Source of the DNA: Bdellovibrionia bacterium
Lineage (GTDB): Bacteria; Bdellovibrionota; UBA1018
Assembly: GCA_045805065.1 (NCBI GenBank)
Contig: JBJMMA010000066.1
Location: forward strand, 1-17,133
Direction of reading: 5' to 3'
Length of the DNA stretch: 17,133 nt
A model generated the notes under the pieces. It saw only the letters and a list, made by a program, of their open reading frames with translations, ran no database searches and was not told the DNA's origin. This document shows, piece after piece, positions 1 through 15,892 of this stretch. Position 1 is the stretch's first letter. Each line of letters begins with the position of its first letter. The translations under genes were made by a program, and so were the position numbers.

Positions 1-78
1 ACAAAATATCCATACAAAACAAAATTCCCAAAAAAACAATTTACATAACCAAGCAAAAAAGATGGATGGAAAAAAATT
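1..78. other. Low-complexity A/C-rich terminal sequence, probable read or library artefact
   Basis: There is no G until position 53, and the A-runs are unlike the balanced-GC coding sequence that follows. It mirrors the T/G-rich tail at the other end. The right boundary is approximate. Confidence 0.6.
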
Positions 79-559
79 TACCGTTGAATCATATGCTGAA
101 CTTCTATCTAAGATTCCGGGCAAGACTCCGGTGATCATGGGGACTCCAAAGGATTTTGAAAGTGTCGAACTTGTTCGATTGCTCGAGCAAAAGTGCGTGC
201 CTGTGATCTCGGCCGTAGGCTCGTGGAATCTGAAAGAAGTAGCGCAAATTATTTCAGGAGCATGGCGCTATCTGGGTAATGATACGGGACTTGGGCACTT
301 GGCAGAGGCTGTAGGGGTGCCAAGTTTTGTGGTCTTTGGCCCCACACGTGAGGATATGGGTTTTGGTCCTTGGCGTCCGGAGAGCCGCGCGATTGGAAAG
401 AGTTTAGCTTGTCGCCCTTGTGGAAAAGATGGCAGGTATTGTTATCGGCTTGGACAGCGCTTCGCTTGTATGACGGGCCTTAAGGCTCAAGATGTGATCT
501 TACAAGCACCTGAGTTGGCCGCTTTAGCTGAGAAGAAAGAGCTCAGTCGCTCGACATGA
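62..559 (+). CDS. Glycosyltransferase family 9 (ADP-heptose:LPS heptosyltransferase-like), C-terminal part, 5'-truncated
   Basis: GT9 signature 'YLGNDTGLGHLAEAVGVPSFVVFGPT' and a C-terminal 'CRPC...C...C' cluster. The N-terminal domain is missing and the listed ATG lies in the artefact-like end. It overlaps waaA by ATGA at 556-559. Confidence 0.88.
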   Translation: MDGKKFTVESYAELLSKIPGKTPVIMGTPKDFESVELVRLLEQKCVPVISAVGSWNLKEVAQIISGAWRYLGNDTGLGHLAEAVGVPSFVVFGPTREDMGFGPWRPESRAIGKSLACRPCGKDGRYCYRLGQRFACMTGLKAQDVILQAPELAALAEKKELSRST

Positions 560-2019
560 CGAAAACCGTGATCGATGCTTCTTCAGAAAAGCGCACAGGA
601 TACCGCAAGTGGAGCTTGCTTGCCCGGCTCTATAGCGTTTTCATGCGGTCCTTTGTTCAGCGAGTATTGATTCCTCGGTTCGCAAGCTCAGAACGTGTCC
701 GAGACGGTCGCAATCAATGGGCGTTCTTAAGTGAGCAGACTGGAATTAATCCAGCCGGTCTAAATCAATCTCAAAGCGAGGCTCACCGGATCTGGTGGCA
801 TGCCGCAAGCGTGGGTGAGCTTGAGATCCTTTGGCCGATCATGGTTCGAATTGCAGAAGAAGCCGCTCAAGAAAGAGAGCCTGGACAGGACTCGTCTAAG
901 TCTGCTGTGGAGTTTGTCGTCACAATCCTAAGTGAGTCGGCTAAAGAGAGGCTTGAGAAGCTGAACACCGCATTGAGCAAGCTTGGGATGCCGGTTGTGT
1001 TTTCAGGGTACTGTCCCTGGGAAGGCGATTGGACTGCGGCATTGAGTGTGCTTGAGCCGGATCTTTTTATTACGTCAAAATACGAAGCGTGGCCTGAGCT
1101 TTGGATGGGACTTGAGGAGCGGCAGATTCCGCTTCTTATTGTAAGCGCTAAAGATCGTCGCTCACTCAGGCTTTGTCGCGGCATCTGTCGAGCTTTAGGG
1201 GCGGCTCTCCCTGACATGAGTTTATTTGCGGCAATTTCGGAAGATCTGCCCGGGTTAAAAAAGAATTTCCCTCAGGCCAGAGTTGAAATGGTTGGCGAGC
1301 CTCGCTGGGATCAGGTTTGGAATCGCGCTCAGGCTGGAAGTCCAAGGGCGAAAGAGCTTGCAGCGGCTATGCAGGAGCTCCCAAGACCTTGGGGTGTCTT
1401 GGGAAGCGCATGGAGCGAGGATGTGGGCCTGTGGAACGGGTATCTTCAAAAAGTCGCCCGTGCTCCGGCTTATTCTTCAGCTCATACCTCCGACCAAGCC
1501 TTAATAGATTCCCTGGGAAGCGTCCTGATTGTTCCGCATCGAATTGATTCAGAGCATGTTCAGGAGATTGAAGATGTTTTGAAAAAAGGGAACGTAGAAT
1601 TTGTAAGGACATCTGATTTCAAGTCCGCTCAAGAGTTGAGAGAAGCCTTGAAGAGGCATTCTGCGGTCCGATGTTTAATTGTTAATGAAATGGGTTTTCT
1701 CTCTGAACTTTATTCGGTTGCTGACTGGGCTTATGTCGGAGGTGGGATCGGAAGACGTGGCGTTCACAGCACGATTGAGCCTGCTATTCATGGGATTCCA
1801 ATCTCATGCGGCACTTACCGGGCCCATCAGTTTGTCGAGATTGCGGAACTGAGAAGCACGGGACAGATGACTCTGATCCGATCGGAAGCGGAATTGGAAC
1901 ATTGGGTGAATGGACTGAAGAGCGCTTCCCAAAATCGTGATCGATGGAGAGCTGAGGCAATGCGTCGACTTGGGGCGACGGAGAGGCTCTCGCAGCGAGT
2001 ATTAGGAATGCTTCACTAG
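556..2019 (+). CDS. waaA: 3-deoxy-D-manno-octulosonic acid (Kdo) transferase, GT30
   Basis: Motifs 'IWWHAASVGE', 'YEAWPEL', 'LIVPH', 'MGFLSELYSVADWAYVGG' and 'HSTIEPA' match WaaA/KdtA. It is coupled to the GT9 gene. Confidence 0.9.
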   Translation: MTKTVIDASSEKRTGYRKWSLLARLYSVFMRSFVQRVLIPRFASSERVRDGRNQWAFLSEQTGINPAGLNQSQSEAHRIWWHAASVGELEILWPIMVRIAEEAAQEREPGQDSSKSAVEFVVTILSESAKERLEKLNTALSKLGMPVVFSGYCPWEGDWTAALSVLEPDLFITSKYEAWPELWMGLEERQIPLLIVSAKDRRSLRLCRGICRALGAALPDMSLFAAISEDLPGLKKNFPQARVEMVGEPRWDQVWNRAQAGSPRAKELAAAMQELPRPWGVLGSAWSEDVGLWNGYLQKVARAPAYSSAHTSDQALIDSLGSVLIVPHRIDSEHVQEIEDVLKKGNVEFVRTSDFKSAQELREALKRHSAVRCLIVNEMGFLSELYSVADWAYVGGGIGRRGVHSTIEPAIHGIPISCGTYRAHQFVEIAELRSTGQMTLIRSEAELEHWVNGLKSASQNRDRWRAEAMRRLGATERLSQRVLGMLH

Positions 2020-2023
2020 AACA

Positions 2024-2032
2024 TGTTATTGT
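2024..2032 (+). promoter_or_regulatory. Possible extended -10 element (TGtTATTGT) upstream of kal
   Basis: TGn-TAnnnT in an AT-rich 51-bp gap, followed by an SD-like GGAGA at 2057-2061. Confidence 0.35.
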
Positions 2033-2070
2033 AATTCTACTTTGAATCAGGGATCGGAGAGAAAAACGTT

Positions 2071-2532
2071 ATGGCAGCTGAAAACCAAAACAACCGGGAT
2101 AGAGGACAGAACTCAGGCGTAAACGCTGATGGCGTTGGCACTACCGCTACATTGCGCCTGAGAATGAGCTCACATGATGCTCACTATGCAGGTGGCTTAG
2201 TAGACGGTGCCCGCATGCTGGGCCTTTTTGGTGATGTTGCAACCGAGCTTCTGATCAAGCTCGATGGCGACGAAGGTCTGTTCCGCGCCTATCAAAGCGT
2301 TGAGTTTCTCGCGCCTGTCTTTGCCGGTGACTATATCGAAGTATCAGGAAAAATTACTCGTGTCGGAAAGACTTCGCGCGACATGGAATTTGAAGCCCGT
2401 AAGGTGATTCAGCCGCTTCCTGTTGAAAAAGGGGGCTTGGCGGTTTCGTCAGCTGAAATATTGCGTGAGCCTATTACGGTCTGCAGGGCTCGAGGAACTT
2501 GCGTCACGCCGGCAGAGCTTCAGAGAAAGTGA
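2071..2532 (+). CDS. kal: 3-aminobutyryl-CoA ammonia-lyase (hotdog fold)
   Basis: '[61 protein letters not shown]' and C-terminal '[11 protein letters not shown]' are characteristic of Kal. Confidence 0.88.
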
Positions 2533-2583
2533 CCGGCCCGAAGAATTAAGAAGGATTAAACGGAACCAAAGGGAGCGGCAAGG

Positions 2584-4179
2584 ATGCGCCTGCGGGATCA
2601 TTACGATTGGATTGTGCTAGGAGATGACCCTGGAGCTTTGCTCAGTGCAAGCCTTGCAGCCAAGCTTGGCCTATCGGTCTTGATTCTGCCTCTCTATCCC
2701 GCACCAAGTGTGCGAATCACGGGTGGAGATGATCGTTCAGATAAAAGTGTGCTCGATCTTGAGACCAACGCGATTCCGGGGTTTGGCTCGGGAGGCCTTT
2801 GGGATGCCTGCCTGGTGGGTGCTGGAATGGCGCCACAGGAACAATCGCAGATATTGAAATCCGGCTCAAGCCCCCAGGTGCTCACTCCACGGCGTCGAGT
2901 TTTGCTGGATTCCGACCGGACTCGCTTTCTGAGCGAGGTGGCTCGAGAGTGGGGCGCTGACCTCGTTGAAAGTTGTGGTATCACAGATGCATTGAAGCAT
3001 GCCGATCCATTTATCGAGAAGTTCTGGCTCGATCTTCCCGAGAGACTCACGCTTAAGGCGACACGGGCAGAGTTGGCAAAAAAGACCACACCCGATCAGA
3101 GTGACTCGCCTGAGTTTAAAAAGGCCGTTGCAGGTACTGACCTTGGAAAACTTGCGGACCAGCTTTCTCGCATCACCGGAAAAGAAAAAGGTTCCGTTAA
3201 AGATTGGTTTTCCACGAATACGGCCTTGGGGCAGTGGGAGGCAAGGAACTCGCAGTTCGACATGCTTGAGTTCTGTGAAGGTGTGCAAGCGGCAGTCGCC
3301 GACTCGCAGGGATCTTCAGAGACCGATCTTTTCTCTGTACTGCATCAGCTGGCACTTTCACGCACGACAGGGTCGTTTCTGGGAGGGATGAGTGCCTTCA
3401 GGGAGTATCTCCTCAGGCTTGCAAGGCGGAACGGAGCAGACATTCCTCCAAAAACTGATTGTCGACAGATCTTCATCCAAAATGGACGCTTTGCGGGAGT
3501 TCTGCCTTCAATCCGGGGCAGTATGATCAGCGGCACAGGCGGTATTCTGGGCGTTCCGCTGGAATACATTCAAGCCATGCTCACACAGAGTGGACGCGCC
3601 TGGGGCAAGGGTTTCAGAACCGCTCCTAGTCCGACGGGCTGGAAATTCACTCTGGCGCTGACGCTTCATCCTGAGGCGATCCCGCCCGGAATGGCTAGAC
3701 GTGTGATCTGGCAGGAGAAGGGCGCGCCATTTATCGAGCTAGAACGGGTTCACCCATCTGAGTATGGGCAAAAAGATGGTAATCGAGTCATTCTTTTCCT
3801 TCGCACAGTGATGCCCATGACTGAGGAGAGCCTGTCGCCTTCTTATCAGCGACTCATCAGTGCAAGGTTATTGAGAAAAGCGGCTCAGATCTCGCCGTTT
3901 CTCGAGTACCACATCAGGAAGATCTATCCTGATTTCAGAACTGAAGGAACGCGGGAGCTTCATGAGGTTTTCGGATTCAAGGCTTTGACCGAAATTCCAC
4001 CTCAGCTTCTGGTTTATTCAGGGAAGGGCATGGGCGCACAGTCTGGCGTTGAAGGATTGTTCTTGTCCTCAAGGGAATCTTTCCCTGCCATGGGCATGCA
4101 TGGCGGCGCAATCTCTGCTCTGGAAGGGGTTGCCTGGGTTGCGCATCGCTCGGGGCTTGCTGGCCCTTTGCAGGCTTAG
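2584..4179 (+). CDS. Phytoene-dehydrogenase-like / FAD-oxidoreductase-fold protein with degenerate dinucleotide-binding motif
   Basis: N-terminal beta-alpha-beta 'YDWIVLGDDPGALLSASLAAKLGLSVLIL', an internal 'GGMSAF' segment, and C-terminal 'GVEGLFLSSRESFPAMGMHGGAISA', which resembles the CrtI/COG1233 family tail. SD-like sequence upstream. Confidence 0.6.
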   Translation: MRLRDHYDWIVLGDDPGALLSASLAAKLGLSVLILPLYPAPSVRITGGDDRSDKSVLDLETNAIPGFGSGGLWDACLVGAGMAPQEQSQILKSGSSPQVLTPRRRVLLDSDRTRFLSEVAREWGADLVESCGITDALKHADPFIEKFWLDLPERLTLKATRAELAKKTTPDQSDSPEFKKAVAGTDLGKLADQLSRITGKEKGSVKDWFSTNTALGQWEARNSQFDMLEFCEGVQAAVADSQGSSETDLFSVLHQLALSRTTGSFLGGMSAFREYLLRLARRNGADIPPKTDCRQIFIQNGRFAGVLPSIRGSMISGTGGILGVPLEYIQAMLTQSGRAWGKGFRTAPSPTGWKFTLALTLHPEAIPPGMARRVIWQEKGAPFIELERVHPSEYGQKDGNRVILFLRTVMPMTEESLSPSYQRLISARLLRKAAQISPFLEYHIRKIYPDFRTEGTRELHEVFGFKALTEIPPQLLVYSGKGMGAQSGVEGLFLSSRESFPAMGMHGGAISALEGVAWVAHRSGLAGPLQA

Positions 4180-5195
4180 TTCTTAATTAGGCCTGAGTAA
4201 GGAAGAAGCGTTTGAGGCGAGCGATCTGTCAGTGACCGCGGAGGCTTTGTGGTCGGCGCAAGCGTGTGTCCGCCTAAGATTTTTTCATAGAGCGCAACGT
4301 AGGATCTGGCCATGTCCAAATGAGTCAGGCCGCGAAAGACTCGAGCGCGACAATCCTCCGGACGAAAGGACTTTTCACGAATGGCGTTCAGCAGGTCATT
4401 CGCATTCTGACTTAAATAACCCACGTCGGCTGTGACCAGCTCGGGAAGTGAGCCATAGGGGGTGCCAAAGACGGAGCATCCGCTTGCAAGAGCTTCAGTC
4501 ATTGCAATGCCAAAGGGCTCATGCCAGCGAACTGGAAAAAGCAGGGCACGAGCTTTGCGAAGCACCTTCTTTTTTTCCTCATCATCGACCATGCCCAGAT
4601 AGTGGACGCCTCGAAAGGCAGGAAGTTTTCTCTGGAGCCTCAGAGGCCATTCGCGGCTGCCCATGACATAGAGAGGGTATTTGGCTGCGCGAGCAAGCTC
4701 GATGGCGCCGGCAAGGTTCTTTACTTTCCAAGACGCCTTGGCGAGAAAAACTAAAAAGTCATCTCGCACTGGGTCACAAGGGTAATCGTTTGGGTTGATT
4801 CCATTATGAACAAAAACTGAAGCACCGTGGTTTTCAGCATGCTTCCGTGACAGAAAGACCGTGTTGGGAAGAAAGGTTTCGCCCGGCTGGCCATTTCCAT
4901 GAATGGTAACCAGATACGGTTTTTTTGGAGGCTCATGAGGCGTAGCCTGCAAGTGAATCAAATCAACCGATGCGGGCAGTTTCCGCTCCCAGTGGCTTAT
5001 CCCATCGATTTTCTGATGATGATCAGGGTCGATTTTGATCAGCTCTGCGCCATCGACATGACTGCCTGGGCGAGCGACAAGCGTGACCTGATGCCCAAGC
5101 TCAAGCAAGGCCTGCGCTAGCCAGAAAACGATTCGCTCGGTTCCTCCGTATTTGCCCGGAGGAATGATGGCATCGTGATAAAGGGCGATATGCAT
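4176..5195 (-). CDS. Glycosyltransferase family 4 (GT-B)
   Basis: 'MHIAL...PPGKYGGTERIV' and the 'FPVRWHEPFGIAMTEALASG' EX7E motif. The start is more likely the ATG at 5195 than 5231. The stop codon overlaps that of the convergent gene. Confidence 0.92.
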   Translation of the reverse strand: MHIALYHDAIIPPGKYGGTERIVFWLAQALLELGHQVTLVARPGSHVDGAELIKIDPDHHQKIDGISHWERKLPASVDLIHLQATPHEPPKKPYLVTIHGNGQPGETFLPNTVFLSRKHAENHGASVFVHNGINPNDYPCDPVRDDFLVFLAKASWKVKNLAGAIELARAAKYPLYVMGSREWPLRLQRKLPAFRGVHYLGMVDDEEKKKVLRKARALLFPVRWHEPFGIAMTEALASGCSVFGTPYGSLPELVTADVGYLSQNANDLLNAIREKSFRPEDCRARVFRGLTHLDMARSYVALYEKILGGHTLAPTTKPPRSLTDRSPQTLLPYSGLIKN

Positions 5196-5202
5196 GGTGA
5201 TG

Positions 5203-5231
5203 TTGCCTGTGGGCTGACTCAAGTGTACCAT
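5203..5231 (+). promoter_or_regulatory. sigma70-type promoter for purB (TTGCCT-N17-TACCAT), overlapping a divergent extended -10 (TGgTACACT, - strand 5230-5222) for the GT4 gene
   Basis: -35 at 5203-5208 and -10 at 5226-5231 with a 17-bp spacer. The opposite-strand -10 shares the TA at 5226-5227. Confidence 0.55.
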
Positions 5232-5241
5232 GAGCGCATCT

Positions 5242-6585
5242 ATGATCCCACGCTATTCACGTCCGGAAATTTCGAGAATTTGGGAAGACCGTAATCGATA
5301 CCTCACCTGGTTGAAAGTTGAGGTGGCAGTTTGCGAGGAACTGACCCGGGAAAAATATATTCCGGCGAAGGACTGGCGCGAGCTCAAGCGCAGTACAGAC
5401 CAATTGATTCGTGATGGTGGAGTGGATCCGAAGCGGGTCGACCATTTTGAATCTATCACGCGTCATGATGTGATTGCGTTCACCACCGCTGTGGCCGAGC
5501 GTATTGGCCCGATTTCTCGTTATATCCACTTCGGACTGACATCATCGGATGTGGTCGATACGGCTCTTTCTCTTATGATTCAGGAAGCGGGAAAAATCCT
5601 TCGCCAGGATATTGTCGAGCTTCTTGAGACTTTGGAAAAGCAGGCCAAGAAGTATCGGGATCTTCCAACCATTGGTCGCTCTCATGGAATTTTTGCGGAG
5701 CCTACAAGTTTCGGTCTGAAGTTCCTAGGATGGTACGCGGAGTGGGAGCGAAATTTGGAACGTCTTGATGAGGCTCTGGAGCGCTGCCGTTATGGAAAGC
5801 TCTCAGGTGCTGTGGGCGTAAACCCTCATTGGGGACCGCGTTTTGAACAGAGAGTGCTCGCAAGACTCGGACTGAATCGTGAGCCTGTCAGTACACAGGT
5901 GATTCCTCGAGATCGGCACGCAGAATTCTTAAGTGTTCTCGCCGAATGCGGATCCTCATTGGAACGCATCGCTGTGGAACTCAGACATCTTCAACGCACG
6001 GAAGTAGGAGAAGTCTTAGAGAGCTTTCAAAAGGGGCAAAAAGGCTCAAGCGCCATGCCTCATAAGCGAAATCCAATTTCGTCTGAAAATCTCACCGGCG
6101 CAGCAAGGCTTCTGAGAGCTTACGCGCAGACGGGGCTTGAGAACGTTGCCCTTTGGCATGAGCGAGATATCAGTCATTCGTCCGTTGAGCGGATCTCGTT
6201 TCCAGATGCGACGATCCTATTGGATTATGCTCTGGCGCGGATGAATCGCATTTTGGATGGACTTACTGTTCGCGAAGAAAACGTGAAAGCCAATCTGGAG
6301 AAAGCGGGACTGACTGTCTTTTCGGGGCACTTCCTGCTTGCATTGGTTAAGGAAGGCGCGACTCGCGAGGATGCCTATGCTTGGGTCCAGAGCTGTGCTC
6401 TGGCAAGTTTTGAGGGGCAGGGAGATTTCATTGAGCTGCTCGAGAAGCACGAAGAAATTCGCAGCTATCTTACCCCCGCGCGGATTCGTCAGCTGGGATC
6501 CATGAAGTTCCAGCTCCGCCACGTGAAAGAGATCTATGCCTCCGTGCTAGGTGGTTCCAAGAAAAAGCGTCGTAAATCAGTGTGA
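5242..6585 (+). CDS. purB: Adenylosuccinate lyase
   Basis: 'MIPRYSRPE' N-terminus, 'TRHDVIAF', 'IHFGLTSSD', 'GRSHGIFAEPT' and the fumarate-lyase signature 'GSSAMPHKRNPI'. Start placed at 5242 (the ORF track gives 5230). Confidence 0.97.
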   Translation: MIPRYSRPEISRIWEDRNRYLTWLKVEVAVCEELTREKYIPAKDWRELKRSTDQLIRDGGVDPKRVDHFESITRHDVIAFTTAVAERIGPISRYIHFGLTSSDVVDTALSLMIQEAGKILRQDIVELLETLEKQAKKYRDLPTIGRSHGIFAEPTSFGLKFLGWYAEWERNLERLDEALERCRYGKLSGAVGVNPHWGPRFEQRVLARLGLNREPVSTQVIPRDRHAEFLSVLAECGSSLERIAVELRHLQRTEVGEVLESFQKGQKGSSAMPHKRNPISSENLTGAARLLRAYAQTGLENVALWHERDISHSSVERISFPDATILLDYALARMNRILDGLTVREENVKANLEKAGLTVFSGHFLLALVKEGATREDAYAWVQSCALASFEGQGDFIELLEKHEEIRSYLTPARIRQLGSMKFQLRHVKEIYASVLGGSKKKRRKSV

Positions 6586-6591
6586 GCGGAT

Positions 6592-6621
6592 TTGCTCGCA
6601 CCCGTTGCTTTGCGATACACT
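6592..6621 (+). promoter_or_regulatory. Possible sigma70 promoter (TTGCTC-N18-TACACT) giving a leaderless prepilin mRNA
   Basis: The -10 ends 6 nt before the ATG at 6628, and there is no SD sequence. Confidence 0.45.
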
Positions 6622-6627
6622 TATCCT

Positions 6628-6852
6628 ATGGAAATTTTTCGCAGGGGAATCAGAAGTCAGCTGGGTCAGGCCACGACCGAGTACATTCTGGTTCTTGCGA
6701 TGGTGGTCTCAGTTTTTTTGCTGGTCTTCAAGGGCGTGCTGTTTCCGAAGCTTCAACAGCTGCAAACGCAACTCTCGAAAAGAATCGAGTCGATGTATTC
6801 AGGCGACAATCTGCATCAGCTGAATTTTAAGATTTCCGGCCCGAAGAAATAG
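6628..6852 (+). CDS. Small Flp/TadE-like prepilin with class III signal peptide
   Basis: 74 aa. A short basic leader is followed by 'G|QATTEY' (Glu+5, Tyr+6) and the hydrophobic helix 'ILVLAMVVSVFLLVF'. Confidence 0.75.
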   Translation: MEIFRRGIRSQLGQATTEYILVLAMVVSVFLLVFKGVLFPKLQQLQTQLSKRIESMYSGDNLHQLNFKISGPKK

Positions 6853-6854
6853 CT

Positions 6855-6949
6855 AGTCGGGGAGTTTGAAGGGGGAACAAACGGACTGGCTAGCCTCAGG
6901 GATTTTTGGGGGGTAGGGGGGTTGAGCCGCTAGCCAGTCCGTTTGTTGC
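6855..6949 (-). ncRNA. Putative sigma54-dependent small RNA (long hairpin with C-rich loop); 3' end uncertain
   Basis: Predicted +1 near 6949 from the sigma54 promoter, a perfect 19-bp stem (6947-6929 with 6894-6876), loop CCCCCCUACCCCCCAAAAAUCCC, and further C-tracts 3' of the stem. No ORF seen. Confidence 0.65.
6876..6947. repeat. Perfect 19-bp inverted repeat AACAAACGGACTGGCTAGC / GCTAGCCAGTCCGTTTGTT
   Basis: Arms at 6876-6894 and 6929-6947 are exact reverse complements. An inner CTCA/TGAG pairing (6895-6898 with 6923-6926) extends the stem. Confidence 0.95.
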
Positions 6950-6959
6950 CTGATAGTAA

Positions 6960-6975
6960 AGCAACGCTCGTGCCA
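6960..6975 (-). promoter_or_regulatory. sigma54 (RpoN) -24/-12 promoter TGGCACGAGCGTTGCT
   Basis: Exact match to TGGCAC-N5-TTGCW on the - strand, with GG at 6974-6973 and GC at 6962-6961. Confidence 0.85.
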
Positions 6976-7013
6976 TTCCTTATTAAAACAATACAGAATA
7001 CAAAACTCAAACA

Positions 7014-7026
7014 ATTCAATGAGTTG
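7014..7026 (+). promoter_or_regulatory. IHF-like binding site in an AT-rich tract
   Basis: ATTCAATGAGTTG has one mismatch to WATCAANNNNTTR, has A-tracts 5' of it, and lies between the sigma54 promoter and the palindrome. Confidence 0.5.
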
Positions 7027-7060
7027 CTGTCTTTCACTGAAGTCATTTCAGACGTTTTGT

Positions 7061-7079
7061 CTGTCTAAATTTTGGACAG
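7061..7079. promoter_or_regulatory. Palindromic operator / candidate enhancer (UAS) CTGTCTAAATTTTGGACAG
   Basis: 8 of 9 arm positions are complementary (TGTC-N9-GACA). It is centred about 120 bp upstream of the predicted sigma54 start, a typical enhancer distance. Confidence 0.55.
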
Positions 7080-7122
7080 GTGAGGCTAGATTTTTCAGGA
7101 AAATGACACTCTGCAAAATAAG

Positions 7123-7151
7123 TAGACACCCTTCTCTTGACTTGTTATAAC
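7123..7151 (+). promoter_or_regulatory. sigma70 promoter for the beta-barrel gene (TAGACA-N17-TATAAC with TGn extension)
   Basis: -35 at 7123-7128, TG at 7143-7144, -10 at 7146-7151, and SD-like GAGAGGGG before the ATG at 7199. Confidence 0.65.
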
Positions 7152-7198
7152 GCGCCGCATCTTACTCGGAATTCTTTCCTGATGAAAGAGAGGGCGTA

Positions 7199-8692
7199 AT
7201 GGAACGATCTAACTCGGTGTTCATGGTCAAGCCATGGACTGCAGCAATGACAGCAGGACTTTTGGCCTCGATCACCTGGCTTCCCCAGGCGGCTCGCGGC
7301 GAATTAGTCTATGAAGACAATCCAGCGGCATCAGCGGCGGCACCAGCGGATGCTGGTCGTGTTGAAGAGCGTGGAGTTTTAAGACAAGCCCTCGGTACTG
7401 CCGAGCGCGCACGCGATACCCGTCAAGCGGCTCAATATGCAGCACCAGTACAGCCTCAGGCTGTTGCGGTGCAGGCACCTGCTCCGGTCACTGTGGTTTC
7501 GCAACCCCAGGTGATTGCAGCCCCTCAAGCAGCGGTTGTTGCTGAGGCTGCACCTGAGCAGTATGCAGCGCCAGCTCGCCAAGGTGACTCAGTGGAAGAT
7601 ATTCGCCACATGAACAAATCGGAGCTGATGCGCCGTGAACGTGTCCGCGCAGAGCTTCGCAACGAAGATGCGCTTCAAGAGCGCTTAGAAGAGCTTCGAC
7701 TGCGCGACGAGAAGCGCCGCACGGATCAAATCTTAGGTGTTTCAGGTGCAACCGGCGCTACTGGCGCTGAAGGCTCCGGCGTCAATATGCCAGCTCCGCT
7801 TTACGGCGGAGTTCAAGAGCAGGCCGTAAGTGCTCCTGTGACGGATCGTCCAGGTGAAGCACCCCGCTCTCCTCAAATGGTTGCTCCAGCTCAAGCTGTG
7901 GCAGCTCCGAGCGGTGGCGTTCAGCTTGCCGGAATCTCCTCCGTCAATGCGGCAGATCAATCGGCATATCCATCTGCGATGACTGCATCCGTGGACCTCG
8001 ATAAGCCAAAAGACAAATCTACTTTCTATGTCAGCCCGCGTGCGGGTTTGGGCGGGATGTCCAGTCCTGATGGCTACGAGGTGAATCCACGATTTGCCGG
8101 TGGAGTCGCTGTCGGTGTTGCAACTTCGGAGTATCTCAGCTTCGAATTGGGTTATACCTATGCGGAATATGGAGTTGGCATTGGCAGCAATAATCCATAT
8201 GTGCAGCAGTATCTGATGTACCAAGCGCAATATGGAAATAGCCAGAACCTCAATACGCTCGCGATGAAGCAAAACGTCATTGATGCCGGAATCAAGCTGC
8301 ATCTTTTGGAGAGTGCCTCACGAGTGCGCCCTTTCCTGGGTGGCGGTGCGGGTTGGTCAAAGAGCTTTATCAACTACGATCAGAAGATCCTGAGCGCGAT
8401 GAAGCAAAACCCTTATCTGGCTAATTCGCCAGCCGTCAGCGACTATGAGGTGACGTCCTATCTTGGATACATTTCCACAGGTGTTGATGTGAAGATGACT
8501 CAGAATGTCAGCCTGGATATTATGGCGAGATATTATGCAGTGCTTTCTTCAAACGAAAGCAGCAACATGAACAACTACATGTTCTTTAATCCAGGATATG
8601 CTGGCCAATCTCAAGAAAAGCAGGTTGTCGGCGGGTCCATGAGCACGAAGAGCTTCTTCACCATCATGGGTGGAGTAACCTTCGCGTTCTGA
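7199..8692 (+). CDS. Outer-membrane beta-barrel protein (OmpA/OmpW-like barrel) with long Ala/Pro/Gln-rich and coiled-coil N-terminal region
   Basis: Signal peptide ending around 'AARG', amphipathic strands ('FYVSPRAGLG', 'LSFELGYTY', 'VRPFLGGGAGW', 'GVDVKM...SLDIMARY'), and a C-terminal beta-signal 'GGVTFAF'. Confidence 0.82.
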   Translation: MERSNSVFMVKPWTAAMTAGLLASITWLPQAARGELVYEDNPAASAAAPADAGRVEERGVLRQALGTAERARDTRQAAQYAAPVQPQAVAVQAPAPVTVVSQPQVIAAPQAAVVAEAAPEQYAAPARQGDSVEDIRHMNKSELMRRERVRAELRNEDALQERLEELRLRDEKRRTDQILGVSGATGATGAEGSGVNMPAPLYGGVQEQAVSAPVTDRPGEAPRSPQMVAPAQAVAAPSGGVQLAGISSVNAADQSAYPSAMTASVDLDKPKDKSTFYVSPRAGLGGMSSPDGYEVNPRFAGGVAVGVATSEYLSFELGYTYAEYGVGIGSNNPYVQQYLMYQAQYGNSQNLNTLAMKQNVIDAGIKLHLLESASRVRPFLGGGAGWSKSFINYDQKILSAMKQNPYLANSPAVSDYEVTSYLGYISTGVDVKMTQNVSLDIMARYYAVLSSNESSNMNNYMFFNPGYAGQSQEKQVVGGSMSTKSFFTIMGGVTFAF

Positions 8693-8748
8693 TTCGTTAG
8701 CATAACTAGTCGAGTTAGATAGATCGCGTCATTTCGTCCTACTACGCC

Positions 8749-8790
8749 AAAGGGGATGCTCCATCAACAGGGCATCCCCTTTCTATTTGT
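8749..8790 (+). terminator. Intrinsic terminator after the beta-barrel gene
   Basis: Stem AAAGGGGATGC (8749-8759) / GCATCCCCTTT (8772-8782), followed by T-rich CTATTTGT. Confidence 0.75.
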
Positions 8791-8836
8791 TCAGCTGAAA
8801 AAGAGGAGTATGATTTGTCCAAGGCTGGGACGATAT

Positions 8837-11074
8837 ATGACTACTCAAAACGCAAACTCTTCGGCTTTTAAACTGTCTGCTTTTAATTTGGTCGATATGA
8901 CCGCTCAAATGGGCGGCGCAAAAATCTGGACGCTGGTTTTTGATACTCCCGGCGAAAAAGTAAATAAGCTCTCCAAAGCGGCAATTCAGGAATTTGAGCC
9001 GCTTCTTGATCGGCTGGAGCAAATGGGCAAACAGGGACAAATTGAAGCCCTTGCTCTGGTTTCAGGCAAGCCTGGAAATTTCATTGCTGGCGCCGATATC
9101 AACATGTTTGAGGAAGCAAAAACTGCTGAAGAGGCAGAAGCCCTCTCCCGCACCGGCCAAAAACTTTTTGATCGCTGGGAAGATCTTCCGTTTCCAACGA
9201 TTGCAGTGATTGATGGAGCAGCACTCGGCGGCGGCTGTGAGTTGTCTCTCGCCTGTCGTGCGATTGTCATGTCCGATAGCCCACAGACCAAGGTCGGTCT
9301 TCCTGAGACGATGCTTGGGATCATTCCGGGTACGGGCGGATGCATTCGCCTTCCTGCAAAGGTCGGTCTGGCCACTGCTCTGGACATGATTTTGACCGGA
9401 AAGAATCTGAACGGTGAAAGAGCCTATAAAGCAGGTCTTGCTGAAGCGGTGATTCCGCGCCAGAACTTCCAGGAATCCGCACTTCGGTGGATCAAGACGA
9501 ATCTCTCTCGTCTTCGCTCAGGAGAGAGGATTGCGAAGGAACCCAAGCTCGGTGGCTCCGGCGGCATGATGGGCGCAGCTATGGAAAAGACCCCAATGGG
9601 TCGCGCTTTGATCTTCTCTCAAGCCAAAAAAGGCGTGATGTCCAAGACCAAAGGTAAATATCCTGCTCCGCTTGAAGCCATTGCGGTCATGCAGGAAACG
9701 GGAACTCACTATGGTTCGCATTTTCGTGGAAAAGACCGCGACCGTGCGATGGCCCGCGAATCAAAAGGCTTCGGAAGGCTTGCTGTGACGGATGTCTCGC
9801 GCAATCTGGTTCGCATTTTCTTCATGACTGAAGGCGTGAAGAAGTCCAAAGGGCTTGCAGCTGGAAAATCTGCCAATGCGCATTCGGTCAAGCACGCAGC
9901 AGTGCTGGGTGCAGGTGTGATGGGCGGAGGGATTGCTCAGCTTTACGCTGAAAAGAACATCCCCGCGCGCATGAAGGATATCACTACTCAGGCCCTTGCG
10001 CTTGGGATGCAGTCGGCTTCGTCAATTTTCAAAAAACAGGTTCAAAGGCGCCGAATCAACAAGCGTCAGTACATGCAGAAGATGACCTTGATCAGCCCAG
10101 TGCTGGATTATTCCGGCTTTAAAACGACGGATGTCGTGGTTGAGGCAGTCGTTGAAAACCTGGATGTAAAGAAGAAGGTCATCGCAGAGCTTGAGGGGTA
10201 TGTAAAAGATGATTGCATCATCGCTTCCAACACTTCCTCGCTCTCCATCACCAAGATGCAAGACGCTCTGAAAAAACCTGAGCGTTTTGTCGGAATGCAC
10301 TTCTTTAATCCGGTGAGCAAGATGCCACTGATTGAAGTCATTCGTGGCGATAAGACTTCGGATGAAGCCGTGAGCACGATTTTTCAATTCAGTAAGCAGC
10401 TTGGAAAAACGCCTATTGTCGTGAAGGACGCTCCGGGCTTTCTTGTAAATCGTTTGCTGGCCCCCTACCTGAACGAAGCATCCTACATGCTGGGTGAGGG
10501 AGTTTCGATTGAAGATCTGGATCGTGCGATGCTTGCGTTTGGTATGCCGATGGGTCCAGTGGAGCTGATCGATGAAGTGGGTATCGACGTGGGCGCAAAG
10601 GTCGCTCATATCCTGAACGATGCCTTTGGTGCTCGCATGGATCCTTCTCCGCTGAACGACAAGCTTGTCTCGGCAGGCTATCTCGGAAAGAAAAACAGCA
10701 AGGGCTTCTACCAATATCAAAATGGCAAGAAGGGCGAGATCACTTCGAATATCTATGAGCTTTTGGGTGTGAAGCCTCAAAACGGCAAGGTTTCTGACGA
10801 GGAAATTGTCGAGCGCTGCGTGCTTCCGATGATCAATGAGGCGACTCGTTGCTTGGATGAGCAAGTGGTCGCGTCGCCTGAAGAAGTCGATCTTGGAATG
10901 ATCATGGGCACAGGTTTTCCTCCGTTTCGTGGCGGATTGATGCGCTATGCGGATGAGCTGGGTGCGCAAAACATTGTGGATCGTCTGCGGAAGTATGCTG
11001 AGAAGTATGGCGCTCGTTTTGAGCCGGCGCCGGGCTTGATTGCTCGCGCGCAAGCGAAGAAGAGCTTTTACTAA
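8837..11074 (+). CDS. fadJ: Fatty-acid oxidation multifunctional enzyme alpha subunit (enoyl-CoA hydratase / 3-hydroxyacyl-CoA dehydrogenase), FadJ/FadB family
   Basis: 'FIAGADI', 'GAALGGGCEL', 'GLPETMLG', 'VLGAGVMGGGIA', 'ASNTSSL', 'GMHFFNP', 'GFLVNRLL' and 'GTGFPPFRGG'. The ORF-track start at 8756 lies inside the terminator, so the ATG at 8837 is more plausible (8810 is an alternative). Confidence 0.93.
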   Translation: MTTQNANSSAFKLSAFNLVDMTAQMGGAKIWTLVFDTPGEKVNKLSKAAIQEFEPLLDRLEQMGKQGQIEALALVSGKPGNFIAGADINMFEEAKTAEEAEALSRTGQKLFDRWEDLPFPTIAVIDGAALGGGCELSLACRAIVMSDSPQTKVGLPETMLGIIPGTGGCIRLPAKVGLATALDMILTGKNLNGERAYKAGLAEAVIPRQNFQESALRWIKTNLSRLRSGERIAKEPKLGGSGGMMGAAMEKTPMGRALIFSQAKKGVMSKTKGKYPAPLEAIAVMQETGTHYGSHFRGKDRDRAMARESKGFGRLAVTDVSRNLVRIFFMTEGVKKSKGLAAGKSANAHSVKHAAVLGAGVMGGGIAQLYAEKNIPARMKDITTQALALGMQSASSIFKKQVQRRRINKRQYMQKMTLISPVLDYSGFKTTDVVVEAVVENLDVKKKVIAELEGYVKDDCIIASNTSSLSITKMQDALKKPERFVGMHFFNPVSKMPLIEVIRGDKTSDEAVSTIFQFSKQLGKTPIVVKDAPGFLVNRLLAPYLNEASYMLGEGVSIEDLDRAMLAFGMPMGPVELIDEVGIDVGAKVAHILNDAFGARMDPSPLNDKLVSAGYLGKKNSKGFYQYQNGKKGEITSNIYELLGVKPQNGKVSDEEIVERCVLPMINEATRCLDEQVVASPEEVDLGMIMGTGFPPFRGGLMRYADELGAQNIVDRLRKYAEKYGARFEPAPGLIARAQAKKSFY

Positions 11075-11075
11075 G

Positions 11076-12371
11076 ATGAGCGATTTCGCATTTTTCAGGC
11101 ACCTCTGGTCCAGCCCGTGGACGGGCTGGATCGGTGTCCGTTATTTGAAATCAAAGAAGAACTCGCGCTTTCTGAGTTTTATTACCATTCTCTCCGTTCT
11201 GGGCGTCGGGCTTGGTGTTGCTTCCATGATCGTCGTGCTTTCTGTCATGGATGGTTTTGAGGCCGAGCTTAAAAAACGTCTCATGGGAACGGATCTTCAT
11301 ATTCTGATTACCCCAACCACTCTTGTATCGGGATTTGAGGGGGGGATGGTACCCGATGATTCGCTGGATCTGGAGCGTATAAGATCTGGTATTTCTGATC
11401 GAGCGCAAATCGATACGATGTATCCGGTTTTATCGACTGAAGCGATTTTAAAAGCTGGACGAAAAGTCACGGGAGTCATCTTCAAGGGTGTTCCGGGGGA
11501 TCGCCTGGACAAAGTCCAGCAGCTTGTTGTTGAGCGAGCTAAGCCCGAAAGCTTTCGGGACGGGGGATCTGATTCGCAGGTAAAACTTCCGGGAGTTCTT
11601 GTCGGGCAGGAGCTTGCGTATGAGATGGGGCTCATTGCTGGCGATCATGTGACCCTGATCTCTCCGACGGAGACTGAAGGACCCATGAGCTCGGTTCCTC
11701 GGCTCAAGCGCTTTGTGGTGGAGGGGATCTATCATTCAGGGCTTCCTGATCAGGAACTCCACACGATCTTTGCGACCGATGGGGCCGTGAGTTCTTTTCT
11801 TCGCCGAGCGAAGATCGTTTCTCAATGGGAAGTCACGGTCAAAGATTTTGATCAGGCACCGTTAGTTGCGGATGAAATCAGAAAGCAGAATCCACAGTTC
11901 AAGGTTCAGGACTGGATCCAGCTCAATTCCAATCTGTTCTGGTCGCTCAAGCTTGAGCGGGTCTCAATGTTCGTGATCCTGGCTTTCATTGTGATTGTCG
12001 CTTCCTTCAATATCGTGACGACTCTGACGCTGATGGTTCTTGAGAAGAAGCGAGAGATCTCGATTTTACGTGCGATGGGAGCTCGCGAAGGGGCGGTTGC
12101 TGCCATCTTCTTGTCTGAAGGGCTTCTGATCGGAGGGCTAGGCATCGCGGGCGGTATGGCGCTCGGATTTGGTGTTTGCGTGATTCTCAGGAAGTATGAA
12201 TTTATCCAGCTTCCGGATGTTTTTTACGATCGGACCCTTCCCGTTACGTTTGATGCTCGTTACTATATTGGCGTAGGTCTTTGTGCGCTTATTATTGTTC
12301 TCGTGGCATGTCTTTATCCAAGTCGACGTGCGGCGCGACTGGAACCATTGGAGGGAATCCGCTTTGGCTAA
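11076..12371 (+). CDS. Lipoprotein-releasing ABC transporter permease (LolC/LolE/LolF family)
   Basis: 'RYLKSKKNSRFLSFITILSVLGVGLGVASMIVVLSVMDGF', 'VASFNIVTTL...EKKREISILRAMGA' and 'YPSRRAARLEP.EGIR'. The ATG follows the fadJ stop after a 1-nt gap. Confidence 0.9.
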   Translation: MSDFAFFRHLWSSPWTGWIGVRYLKSKKNSRFLSFITILSVLGVGLGVASMIVVLSVMDGFEAELKKRLMGTDLHILITPTTLVSGFEGGMVPDDSLDLERIRSGISDRAQIDTMYPVLSTEAILKAGRKVTGVIFKGVPGDRLDKVQQLVVERAKPESFRDGGSDSQVKLPGVLVGQELAYEMGLIAGDHVTLISPTETEGPMSSVPRLKRFVVEGIYHSGLPDQELHTIFATDGAVSSFLRRAKIVSQWEVTVKDFDQAPLVADEIRKQNPQFKVQDWIQLNSNLFWSLKLERVSMFVILAFIVIVASFNIVTTLTLMVLEKKREISILRAMGAREGAVAAIFLSEGLLIGGLGIAGGMALGFGVCVILRKYEFIQLPDVFYDRTLPVTFDARYYIGVGLCALIIVLVACLYPSRRAARLEPLEGIRFG

Positions 12372-13179
12372 TCAGAACCTGGTAAAATCGATTTCGATGT
12401 TGAGCCTGAGTCTAAGTCTAAGCTTGATGCTGGGCTTATCCGCCAATGCCGATCAGTCAGGAGCTACGGTTAGAAATGCCGTTCCTGGACCTCTGGCACT
12501 CCGTGCTCCTGCATCTCAGCCTAGCGCTACTTCAAGCGTGATTCGCTCAAAGACTTACGAAGCAGGGTCCAATCGCACAAAGCCTCTGTTTGACATGGTT
12601 CGTGAGGAAAAAACGGACGGTGATCAAACCACAATCATCGAGAGCTATACTGATCTCCAGGGAAATGAAGTATTTCGCGGTGAAACAAAGCTTCAAGGCG
12701 GAAAAATCGCAAGCTACGATCTTCAGCAGAAACAGCTGCACGAATCGGCCAAGATTCTGGTCAAAGACGGCAAGATCTTTTTCGAATACACGAACCGCGA
12801 TGGAAAAGTGAAAAAGGACGAAGAGAAGTGGCACGATAACTTTGTCCTCGGCGCAACCTTGTTACGATACATCAGGGCCCATTCGGATGATCTGATGGCG
12901 GGAAGAGATATTGATATGCGCTTTGGCGTTCCGGATCGTTGCGAGACCGTAGGTTTCAAAATCTTTAAAGAAGAAGAGAAGAAGATCGATGGACGCGATG
13001 TGATCATCGCTAAGATGAAGCCTACGAGTGTCATCATTGCAGCACTGGTGAAACCGCTTTATTTTTATATCGATAAAGCGAGCGGCAAGTTGCTTGAATT
13101 TCGCGGGCGCGTTCTTCCAAAACAAAAGGATGGCGATCGGTTCAAGGATCTGGACGCTGAGACTGTTTATTCTTACTGA
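12364..13179 (+). CDS. Secreted/periplasmic hypothetical protein, beta-rich
   Basis: TTG start at 12364 with SD GGAGGG at 12350-12355, overlapping the upstream stop. Signal peptide ends in 'LGLSANA'. The mature part has many short amphipathic strands. Confidence 0.7.
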   Translation: MANQNLVKSISMLSLSLSLSLMLGLSANADQSGATVRNAVPGPLALRAPASQPSATSSVIRSKTYEAGSNRTKPLFDMVREEKTDGDQTTIIESYTDLQGNEVFRGETKLQGGKIASYDLQQKQLHESAKILVKDGKIFFEYTNRDGKVKKDEEKWHDNFVLGATLLRYIRAHSDDLMAGRDIDMRFGVPDRCETVGFKIFKEEEKKIDGRDVIIAKMKPTSVIIAALVKPLYFYIDKASGKLLEFRGRVLPKQKDGDRFKDLDAETVYSY

Positions 13180-13182
13180 AAA

Positions 13183-14490
13183 TCAGACTTGAGCTGTTTT
13201 CCGGCAGAGATGAATCCAGCGCCAGACAAGGCACGCTGCGACCGCAGTAAGTCCCAGGGCTAGTCCTGTCCATAAACCGGTCAGGCCTCGTCCGTAAGAG
13301 AAGCAAAGCGCTATGCCGATGGGGATTCCAATTCCCCAATGGCCCAAAAGATTGGCGATCATCGAGGTTTTGGTATCCGCCAGGCCTCGCAGGGCGCCAG
13401 ACGCGACGACTTGAGCGCCGTCAGAAAGCTGAAATAGCGCGGCAATCAGGAGAATGTTCATAGCCATCGCATGGACGCTGGGGTTGGTCGTGTAAAGTTC
13501 AATAAGTCGTGTTGAAAAAAGAAGGAGGCAAAGACTGGAGATCGCCATGAATCCCACTCCCATTGCCAGGCCTTTCCAACCCACTTTTGCCGCAGCGCTT
13601 TTATCTCCGCGGCCCATTTCTCTGCCTACCAGGACGGCCGTAGCTGAGCTGATTCCAAGCGGGACCATGAAAGTCATGCTGGCGATGTTCAGAACGATCT
13701 GGTGCGCAGCCAGGGCTTCCGACGCAAGGCGTGCGGCGAGAGTCGTGGAGAAGGCGAATCCACCGACTTCAAAGGTCATTTGAAGGGCTGAAGGGATTCC
13801 CAGTTTGAGAAGTTTTCTCATGGATTCGCGGTCGAAGGGGATGCCGTATTTTTCGAAGTGATGGTCTTTGCGGCGATCGTACAAGTAATGAACGCCAAAC
13901 ATCGCGGCAACCATAAAGACGCGCGCGATCAAGGTTGCGTAGGCCGATCCAGTGGCGCCCATCGCCGGAAATCCGGCATGTCCAAGGACAAGCACCCAGT
14001 TTGCCAGGGCATTCATGACATTCGACAGGATAAGAATTACGGCAGCGGGACGAGCAATGCCTTGGGCTTGGAGGAACTGCCTGCTGGATGCAAAAAGATA
14101 AACGGGGATGAGGCTCAATGAGAGGATAAAAAGATAGTCCCGACTCGGCGCAATCACCTCAGGGTTGATCCCAAACCATTCCAGATGGTGGGAGACATAG
14201 AGCAGCGCCAAAGTCATCGGGGCGCCGAGGATCCAGCTCACCCAAAAGCCCTGTGCCCAGGAGAGGTGGGCGTCATGCTTTTTTCCGGCCCCATAAGCAT
14301 GAGCCACCAGGTAATCAAGCCCGGTTAAAAGCCCCATCCCAAAAATCATGAACCAGGAAAAAATGGAGGTTCCCACTCCCACTGCTCCCAGCGCAGCCGG
14401 GCTGACGCGTCCCACGCAGATCAGATCGACCAAACCCATGGTCATGATACCGAGATAAGAAATGATGACGGGCAGTGCGAGCTCAAACAT
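13183..14490 (-). CDS. MATE family efflux transporter (NorM-like)
   Basis: About 12 hydrophobic segments in two repeats. Motifs 'LALPV', 'GLVDLICVGR', 'LGIPSALQMTFEV', 'ALAAHQIVLNI', 'FQLSDGAQVVASGALRG'. Confidence 0.93.
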   Translation of the reverse strand: MFELALPVIISYLGIMTMGLVDLICVGRVSPAALGAVGVGTSIFSWFMIFGMGLLTGLDYLVAHAYGAGKKHDAHLSWAQGFWVSWILGAPMTLALLYVSHHLEWFGINPEVIAPSRDYLFILSLSLIPVYLFASSRQFLQAQGIARPAAVILILSNVMNALANWVLVLGHAGFPAMGATGSAYATLIARVFMVAAMFGVHYLYDRRKDHHFEKYGIPFDRESMRKLLKLGIPSALQMTFEVGGFAFSTTLAARLASEALAAHQIVLNIASMTFMVPLGISSATAVLVGREMGRGDKSAAAKVGWKGLAMGVGFMAISSLCLLLFSTRLIELYTTNPSVHAMAMNILLIAALFQLSDGAQVVASGALRGLADTKTSMIANLLGHWGIGIPIGIALCFSYGRGLTGLWTGLALGLTAVAACLVWRWIHLCRKTAQV

Positions 14491-14501
14491 GATGTTTTCG
14501 C

Positions 14502-14530
14502 AGCATATCGAACATGACGCCTAACATCTA
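14502..14530 (-). promoter_or_regulatory. Possible promoter for the MATE gene (TAGATG-N17-TATGCT), very short leader
   Basis: The -10 at 14507-14502 ends 11 nt before the ATG at 14490, with no SD sequence. Confidence 0.4.
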
Positions 14531-14552
14531 GATGAACTTCTGACCTAACAGT

Positions 14553-14594
14553 CCGGGCGAGAAAAGTGTGCGTCGCGGAGGGCTGCTCGCCCGG
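14553..14594. repeat. 9-bp GC-rich inverted repeat CCGGGCGAG / CTCGCCCGG with 24-nt loop
   Basis: Arms at 14553-14561 and 14586-14594, followed by GTTTT on the + strand. Confidence 0.6.
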
Positions 14595-14642
14595 GTTTTG
14601 CAAAGTCCCCCCTCGAACCGAACAGGCAGAGGCTTCAAGACA

Positions 14643-15845: not shown

Positions 15846-15892
15846 ATAAGAGCTGGCGCTTTACCTGACTCCGATGGTATCTCTGTCTTACA

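Follow-up and report, generated by a model that had tools for sequence, protein, structure and literature searches.

A 17,133-nucleotide (nt) stretch of DNA from a Bdellovibrionia bacterium (assembly GCA_045805065.1, contig JBJMMA010000066.1, positions 1 to 17,133; hereafter the window) very probably holds a real and previously undescribed gene for a short regulatory RNA, which would be transcribed on the minus strand from a sigma-54 promoter. The predicted RNA consists of a single hairpin with a large C-rich loop. Comparison with related genomes strongly supports a stand-alone, non-coding, sigma-54-promoted unit that has been kept across a class of uncultured Bdellovibrionota. As to its function, we favor, at a probability of roughly 0.55, a small RNA (sRNA) of about 72-95 nt that acts in trans, its C-runs pairing with G-rich ribosome-binding sites (RBSs).

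Organization of the locus

The minus strand at 6975-6960 displays the full sigma-54 -24/-12 consensus TGGCACGAGCGTTGCT (Table 1). An initial annotation of the window had described this motif as facing no protein-coding gene, and the sequence agrees, as no minus-strand open reading frame (ORF) is found 3' of the promoter at this locus. The promoter ends 11 nt 5' of a perfect 19-base-pair (bp) hairpin. Counting 12 nt from the -12 C at 6961 places the transcription start near 6949, with the stem starting two bases further on, and the initial annotation had arrived at the same position. An inverted-repeat search returned arms at 6873-6894 and 6929-6950 (22 nt, 95%) with 34 nt between them. The perfect core at 6876-6894 and 6929-6947, obtained by hand count, corresponds to the 19-bp hairpin claimed earlier, and the RNA string written out with that claim agrees with the folded sequence; its end coordinate, 6855, was a guess. 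The hairpin is the sole strong inverted repeat in the 17-kb window. Folding of the minus-strand RNA yields -39.3 kcal/mol with a z-score of -7.2, and none of 200 shuffled sequences was as stable. The plus strand folds too (z = -3.4), as expected of any palindrome.

The strict pattern TGGCAC-N5-TTGCW occurs 12 times on the two strands of the 4.22-Mb source genome, compared with about 4 occurrences expected by chance according to our own arithmetic. We regard the motif at this locus as more than a chance occurrence, because promoter and hairpin are conserved in relatives. The source genome encodes one copy of rpoN and about 17 strong Sigma54_activat genes. A repeat or mobile element was ruled out by the presence of the hairpin in a single copy in the genome. 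A leader or riboswitch of a minus-strand gene was also rejected, because no minus-strand ORF comes after the promoter; in addition, the downstream gene in 26 of 36 loci is purB, encoded on the opposite strand.

Table 1. Features of the locus (positions in the window; dot, no strand assigned).
Feature	Position	Strand	Remark
Sigma-54 promoter, TGGCAC-N5-TTGCT (TGGCACGAGCGTTGCT)	6960..6975	-	-24 GG at 6974-6973, -12 GC at 6962-6961
Predicted sRNA core, from the inferred start (~6949) to the end of the 3' arm	6876..6949	-	no ATG, no ORF
5' arm of the 19-bp stem, AACAAACGGACUGGCUAGC	6929..6947	-
3' arm of the 19-bp stem	6876..6894	-	last bases UUUGUU
Apical loop, 34 nt	6895..6928	-	C-runs CCCCCC-UA-CCCCCC...UCCC
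C-rich tail CCCCCUUCAAACUCCCC, 3' of the stem	6859..6875	-	may or may not belong to the RNA
Palindrome TGTCTAAATTTTGGACA, candidate enhancer-binding-protein site	7062..7078	.	87 nt upstream of the -24 GG
purB, adenylosuccinate lyase (Pfam)	5230..6585	+	conserved neighbor
Terminator-like hairpin with T-rich tail	6580..6601		overlaps the purB stop
Flp-like or class III signal peptide pilin-like ORF, 74 aa (G|QATTEY)	6628..6852	+	convergent; stop 23 nt from the stem
Outer-membrane beta-barrel protein (OMP) gene	7199..8692	+	divergent; shares the palindrome-bearing intergenic region with the RNA promoter

Conservation of the hairpin and the promoter

A DNA search of 41 relatives matched the block at about 6865-6975 alone; it is 72-76% identical in seven further members of the same family, while the flanks remained unmatched. 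A covariance model built from nine sequences (R1), which starts at 6952 and leaves the promoter out, located the element in 33 of 75 family genomes, covering 26 of 48 genera, and in 44 of the 116 genomes of the order. With a second model of 43 sequences (R2), 54 of the 127 genomes in the class gave a match, among them seven of the nine genomes of one family in a second order. Family genomes usually carry one locus, and the second match per genome listed by R1 is the opposite strand of the same hairpin. Genome G003 has two loci (C323:3685-3778 and C246:9336-9431), one in the purB context and the other elsewhere without a Flp-like ORF. Genome G086 has an additional hairpin (C97:8152-8227), which is shorter and shares the loop motif but lacks a canonical -12 element.

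Matches were found in 13 of the 151 genomes of an even sample of the phylum, three of them outside the class (G164, G253 and G179). The element of G164 (G164:C20:6077-6168), which belongs to another class, has a sigma-54 promoter TGGCATGACTCTTGCT and a hairpin loop repeating CCCUUAAAA and CCCCUCCCC (CCC repeats), and behind them lies a GC-rich terminator, distinct from the hairpin, that carries a U-run; the element is possibly a distant relative or an independent analogue. The match in G253 was rejected as a plain terminator with a C9 loop, and that in G013 proved to be a false positive, a long unrelated inverted repeat. Doubtful candidates are the loci of family f10 (G101:C6:108181-108283 and G033:C20:10019-10125), whose hairpin loop holds 10-17 consecutive C and which show no clear sigma-54 motif upstream.

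The promoter, although absent from the R1 model, accompanies the hairpin. The motif GGCA-N7-TGC is present in the 50 nt upstream of the model match in all 30 family loci extracted, and the offset between promoter and model is 22 nt in 24 of the 30, with varying spacer bases. Besides these loci, 15 further matches in other families or of weaker score were examined, leaving 14 after G013 was discarded, and GG-N10-GC is kept in seven of them (G112, G028, G035, G034, G027, G115 and G049). In the second order, six of the seven loci show a sigma-54 motif by eye, and G124 reads TGGTAT...TGCA. The region upstream of the G031 hairpin resembles a sigma-70 promoter by eye (TTGACG-N18-TATAAC). The sigma-54 motif is therefore the rule in hairpin-bearing loci, without being universal. 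In glmY and glmZ the sigma-54 promoter has likewise been replaced or overlapped by a sigma-70 promoter in some lineages, according to the available parts of that report (PMC3045617). The initial annotation had suggested a search of related genomes for the promoter plus the hairpin, and the two were recovered together in all 30 family loci extracted, in seven of the 14 further matches and in six of the seven loci of the second order.

Structure, strand and ends of the predicted RNA

In an alignment of 43 sequences (A3), the 19-bp helix is 92.7% paired and all 19 pairs have been changed on both sides. None of 500 column shuffles equaled the observed values of pairing and covariation, and shifting the partner by 1-3 columns dropped the pairing to 22-43%. 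Over the stem, G·U cells outnumber A·C cells by 54 to 16, and by 35 to 7 in the inner 15 pairs. This excess points to the minus strand as the RNA, with the caveats that related genomes are not independent and that each match was oriented by its C-rich loop. An inner 4-bp helix within the loop (CUCA/UGAG) was rejected, being 33.5% paired in A3 and unsupported by relatives.

Every loop has between two and four C-runs, each four to six or more nt long and often with a U before it, and these C-runs are nearly invariant over the 43 sequences. The loop motif is CCCCCUAnCCCCC...UCCCC for loci of the family; those of the second order have CCCCUCCCCAUCCCCCUCCC. The stem is built as AACAAA - CGGACUGGCUAGC...GCUAGCCAGUCCG - UUUGUU with a G+C-rich upper part, the construction of a bidirectional intrinsic terminator, and the hairpin lies between convergent units. 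A terminator scan passed it over, as that scan accepts loops of 3-8 nt. A plain U-run directly follows the stem in G006, G009, G086, G078, G023 and the second-order (f13) loci, and CCCCC is present in the C-rich tail of many family loci. The RNA would be about 72 nt long if it ended at UUUGUU and longer otherwise, giving the predicted range of about 72-95 nt.

The upstream palindrome and a wider sigma-54 regulon

A scan for TGTC-N9-GACA, allowing at most one mismatch over the eight half-site bases, revealed this palindrome between -220 and -30 in 22 of 29 loci, compared with 1.6 expected from shuffles. The positions cluster at -70 and -165, and downstream control regions of equal length contained one site in total. 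In the source genome, the N9 spacing accounts for 82 sites, compared with 23-46 at five other spacings (30 at N10). A sigma-54-like motif is faced within 230 nt by 25 of the 82 N9 sites, often exactly 51 nt off. The exact form TGTCTAA-N3-TTRGACA is present in 53 of 75 family genomes, including genera that lack the RNA, whereas a reversed control was found in 2 of 75. As the palindrome occurs in RNA-negative genera too, the regulon that it marks extends over the family and is older or wider than the RNA. Sigma-54-like promoters of this regulon follow the palindrome at a distance of 51 or about 73-89 nt, and examples of palindrome-marked sites are C34:41464, C55:23968, C134:8174, C137:8031, C176:17563, C201:20153, C234:42630, C237:11593 and C245:5661.

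Of 18 first ORFs behind palindrome and sigma-54-like promoter in the source genome, three bear Pfam domains, namely a phospholipase D-like (PLD-like) phospholipase, an SLT lytic transglycosylase and a subtilase, and 15 bear none; most of the 18 begin with a signal-peptide-like sequence by eye. The same palindrome and a sigma-54-like promoter precede an operon at C134:8000-12300 (locus L093), which encodes a CHASE2 histidine kinase (331-2373) followed by a REC-AAA+-HTH_8 response regulator (2400-3929). On contig C176, a palindrome promoter lies just downstream of the gene for a second enhancer-binding protein. The C134 response regulator and the C176 enhancer-binding protein are both candidate activators of the RNA promoter, and the C134 operon is a candidate for the autoregulated master of the palindrome regulon. 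An orthologue of the CHASE2 kinase is present in five of five RNA-positive and three of five RNA-negative genomes. The palindrome lies upstream of the kinase gene in three of three RNA-positive genomes compared with none of three RNA-negative ones, numbers too small for a conclusion.

Neighboring genes

The order purB, Flp-like ORF, convergent RNA and divergent OMP gene recurs in relatives, with purB in 26 of 36 loci and the OMP gene likewise in 26 of 36. In the source genome the terminator-like hairpin at the purB stop suggests that the Flp-like ORF is transcribed on its own; no obvious Shine-Dalgarno sequence lies ahead of its ATG at 6628. The Flp-like small proteins have 61-92 aa and consist of a leader, the motif G-Q-A-T-T-E-Y, a hydrophobic helix and a C-terminal LHxFP(V/I)xR, with Q, E and Y of the motif invariant in 21 sequences. 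Among these 21 members, 12 match Class_IIIsignal (PF04021, best E = 1.3e-6) and seven match Flp1_like (PF16982); the product of the source genome itself has no Pfam match at E up to 0.01. They form a distinct subfamily (loci L016-L044), in which FYYFPLK replaces LHxFP(V/I)xR in the second order, and the ORF lies apart from the main flp paralogue cluster on contig C35.

In 22 of 30 loci the Flp-like ORF terminates between -19 and +31 nt relative to the 3' end of the RNA model. According to a hidden Markov model, 23 of the 29 family loci that could be assessed and six of seven second-order loci have the Flp-like ORF next to the RNA, as do G031, G038, G030 and G064. This adjacency in the family, the second order and further genomes indicates that the two genes have been paired for as long as the class has existed. 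The association is not strict, however. The RNA occurs without an adjacent Flp-like ORF in six family loci (the second copy of G003, G086, G006, G023, G089 and G009) and in G120, and four of five RNA-negative genomes retain a Flp-like orthologue that is followed by neither hairpin nor promoter.

On the other side of the RNA gene, the OMP gene has by eye a sigma-70-like promoter, TAGACA-N17-TATAAC, at 7100-7150. At its -35 element it coincides in part with another palindrome, a degenerate one with two mismatches (7112-7128 on the plus strand), so that a bound activator might also affect this divergent gene. The sequence GCGTTATAAC recurs in G001, G081 and G014.

Putative targets

Candidate binding sites for the C-runs are common in the source genome. 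Using gene starts called crudely by our own script, runs of at least five G were found 3-14 nt before 171 in-frame starts, compared with 46 for equally abundant C-runs; these 171 starts represent about 4-5% of 3825 crude gene calls. At least two G-runs are present at 15 of the 171, with no coherent function by eye. The genes of a deoxynucleoside kinase (C224:21575-22264) and a thymidine kinase (C1:5922-6623) have G-run leaders, and both rank in the top five of a duplex scan with the loop. The deoxynucleoside kinase is the best target candidate, with three runs of at least five G before its ATG and a run of 4-7 G at the RBS in five of five RNA-positive relatives. The RNA gene itself adjoins purB, which may be a coincidence. 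No Hfq gene was found in the 94%-complete genome, and CsrA is encoded in it.

Proposed mechanism and alternatives

Based on these comparisons, we propose that an NtrC-type enhancer-binding protein binds the palindrome and activates the sigma-54 RNA polymerase; a possible activator is the response regulator of the CHASE2 kinase operon, which carries the same site. Transcription would start near 6949, and the hairpin, with its A-tract, G+C-rich stem and UUUGUU, would act both as the terminator of the RNA and as that of the convergent Flp-like gene. The initial annotation had opposed an sRNA to a mere pilin terminator, but the two are not exclusive, the hairpin being common to the RNA and the Flp-like gene. 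The unpaired C-runs may then bind messenger RNAs (mRNAs) from other parts of the genome at GGGGGAA-type RBSs, reducing the translation of these mRNAs. Given that the genome yielded no Hfq gene, such pairing may be independent of Hfq, as for sX13 of Xanthomonas. In genomes that have both genes, the Flp-like mRNA, which would be fully complementary at its 3' end, is likely to be affected secondarily. Retention of the C-rich loop in the six family loci and in G120, which lack an adjacent Flp-like ORF, supports action in trans over action in cis.

Several observations weigh against this proposal. The start, the end and the very existence of the RNA are predictions from sequence, and the related genomes compared are not independent samples. 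At the source locus the hairpin is followed by CCCCCUUCAAACUCCCC instead of a plain U-run. The initial annotation had held that loss of the -24/-12 motif from relatives that keep the hairpin would speak against an sRNA. No such loss is seen in the 30 family loci extracted; seven of the 14 other or weaker matches lack the canonical GG-N10-GC (G114, G110, G038, G030, G031, G064 and the second G086 copy). In the duplex scan of 3760 crude start regions at a threshold of -20 kcal/mol or lower, the real loop gave 137 sites and its reversed version 123, without enrichment. A G5 run at the deoxynucleoside kinase RBS is also present in two of four RNA-negative relatives, and the OMP gene was rejected as a target, as its start regions carry an ordinary AAGGAG and no G-runs. 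The earlier reading of the locus as a regulatory sRNA gains from the conserved non-coding sigma-54 unit, the upstream enhancer-like sites, the covarying stem and the C-rich loop, but its further claim that the RNA represses G-rich Shine-Dalgarno sequences draws nothing from a target scan equal to its reversed-loop control; its alternative, titration of a C-binding protein, is taken up below as the decoy reading.

The main rival, unlikely as the principal function although it may well be an additional effect, is a cis-antisense RNA that acts mainly on the convergent Flp-like mRNA via the shared terminator hairpin. Its C-rich loop would kiss the G-rich loop of that mRNA, with the duplex being cut (for example by RNase III) or with transcription interference, and sigma-54 activation would lower Flp-like expression. 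The close spacing of the two 3' ends in 22 of 30 loci, the adjacency in 23 of 29 family loci, six of seven second-order loci, G031, G038, G030 and G064, and the matches of the ORF to Class_IIIsignal (12/21) and Flp1_like (7/21) are consistent with it. However, complementarity in cis is automatic, so the C-richness of the loop is left unexplained, and promoter and C-runs are kept in the seven loci without a Flp-like ORF named above. The four RNA-negative genomes that hold a Flp-like orthologue with neither hairpin nor promoter downstream also speak against it, and at loci with a U-run behind the stem the RNA would stop short of the coding region. A decoy, in which the RNA titrates a protein that binds single-stranded C-runs (a KH-domain protein or Rho) when the activator is on, would suit the several evenly exposed C-runs in one large loop, as in multi-site sponge RNAs, and the duplex scan without enriched mRNA partners. 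We consider it quite improbable: bacterial sponge RNAs are known to display GGA or CA motifs and are not known to display C-runs, G-rich RBS sites are common enough in the genome to act as targets, and no C-binding regulator was identified, though no search for one was made.

Two further explanations assign the hairpin to the Flp-like gene or to termination, and both are highly improbable in our judgment. If the hairpin were the 3' end of the Flp-like mRNA, its G-runs might bind CsrA or form a G-quadruplex, the minus-strand promoter being secondary. The plus-strand loops do read repeated GGGGA/GGGGGA, which contain GGA, and CsrA is encoded in the genome. Nevertheless, the best-conserved features, the sigma-54 promoter and the enhancer site, face the other way, the G·U cells favor the minus strand (54 vs 16), and the element is retained at loci that lack a Flp-like gene upstream on the plus strand. 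The symmetry of A-tract, G+C stem and U-tract, the position between convergent genes and the undefined RNA 3' end at the source locus would also fit a bidirectional terminator from which the promoter makes an abortive or insulating transcript and no RNA product. We find this very hard to credit, because a plain terminator needs neither a conserved 34-nt C-run loop nor a sigma-54 promoter at a fixed 22-nt offset with conserved enhancer sites, and both the stem sequence and the motifs of the loop have been conserved in two orders.

A broader version of the trans-acting sRNA is also conceivable, in which these bacteria, probably predators, would have a family-wide sigma-54 'secretome' regulon whose post-transcriptional arm is the RNA. 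In that case one activator, acting through TGTCTAA-N3-TTAGACA, would turn on secreted hydrolases, unknown exported proteins and the C-run RNA, which in turn would shut down the roughly 4-5% of genes with GGGGGAA-type RBSs and silence the Flp-like gene by loop-loop kissing. We regard this scheme as distinctly doubtful.

Relation to known RNAs

The initial annotation had placed the RNA in no named family, and a search of the window against Rfam bears this out: no covariance model matched at its gathering score, and at E up to 10 only chance matches to miRNA precursors appeared (best E = 0.055), though which named sigma-54-dependent sRNA families Rfam 15 includes was left unchecked. Full-text literature searches on sRNAs of Bdellovibrio and Bdellovibrionota and on RpoN returned, in their result lists and abstract openings, no description of this RNA. 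To our knowledge, almost nothing is known of RNA regulators in Bdellovibrionota outside Bdellovibrio, and the source lineage is known only from metagenome-assembled genomes. The outcome here is a well-delimited sRNA family with a promoter type, a likely activator site, co-regulated genes and a conserved gene partner, which can enter RNA family libraries. The co-regulated genes encode secreted phospholipase D-like, lytic transglycosylase and subtilase proteins together with many unknown exported proteins. The RNA offers access to an enhancer-dependent regulon with a possible relation to prey attack, and represents a further case of a C-run sRNA in a genome where no Hfq gene was found.

The Qrr1-5 RNAs of Vibrio, with LuxO, are short regulatory RNAs that depend on sigma-54 and an enhancer, as proposed here; unlike the single hairpin of this locus, they have several stem-loops and are Hfq-dependent. 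The arrangement of the genes recalls the type I toxin-antitoxin pair SR4/bsrG of Bacillus subtilis, in which the gene of a small single-helix membrane protein and a convergent RNA have a common terminator region. Here too a small-protein gene and a short RNA gene converge on such a region. The small protein of this locus, in contrast, has a class III (Flp-type) signal peptide motif and nothing indicating toxicity, the RNA is predicted to be enhancer-dependent, and each partner occurs alone in some genomes.

For the sigma-54 promoter, the closest parallel is GlmY/GlmZ of Enterobacteriaceae. According to the available parts of the report, these sRNAs have a sigma-54 promoter, and GlrR, an activator of the response-regulator type, binds repeated TGTC-N10-GACA sites about 100 bp or more upstream (PMC3045617). 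The present locus resembles that system, so far as those parts describe it, in its sigma-54-driven sRNA gene and its upstream TGTC...GACA palindromes, and the sigma-70-like promoter of G031 parallels the replacement seen in some lineages. It differs from the described GlrR sites in its N9 spacing (82 N9 vs 30 N10 sites in the source genome). The RNA structures are unrelated, GlmY works as a RapZ decoy and not by way of C-runs, and there is no Rfam match.

For the C-rich loop, the parallel is sX13 of Xanthomonas campestris pv. vesicatoria (Xcv). As given in the available excerpts of that study, its C-rich loops repress targets with G-rich motifs at the translation start, its activity is independent of Hfq, and G-rich RBS motifs are present in about 5% of Xcv genes; the same excerpts mention no sigma-54 promoter (PMC3771888). 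Similar to sX13, in as much as is described there, the RNA proposed here has exposed C-rich loop motifs in a genome where no Hfq was found, and similar to the sX13 host that genome has G-rich RBSs, with runs of at least five G at 171 of 3825 crude gene calls. In contrast to the three stem-loops of sX13 in those excerpts, each with a C-rich apical loop, the present RNA would have one hairpin with all C-runs in its 34-nt loop. This hairpin doubles as a terminator, comes from a different phylum and has no sequence or covariance-model similarity to Rfam. Taken together, the RNA works like the sigma-54-dependent sRNAs such as GlmY and like the C-rich-loop sRNAs such as sX13 while being a member of none of those families, and its compact build, with one hairpin serving as both the RNA body and the shared terminator, is unusual.

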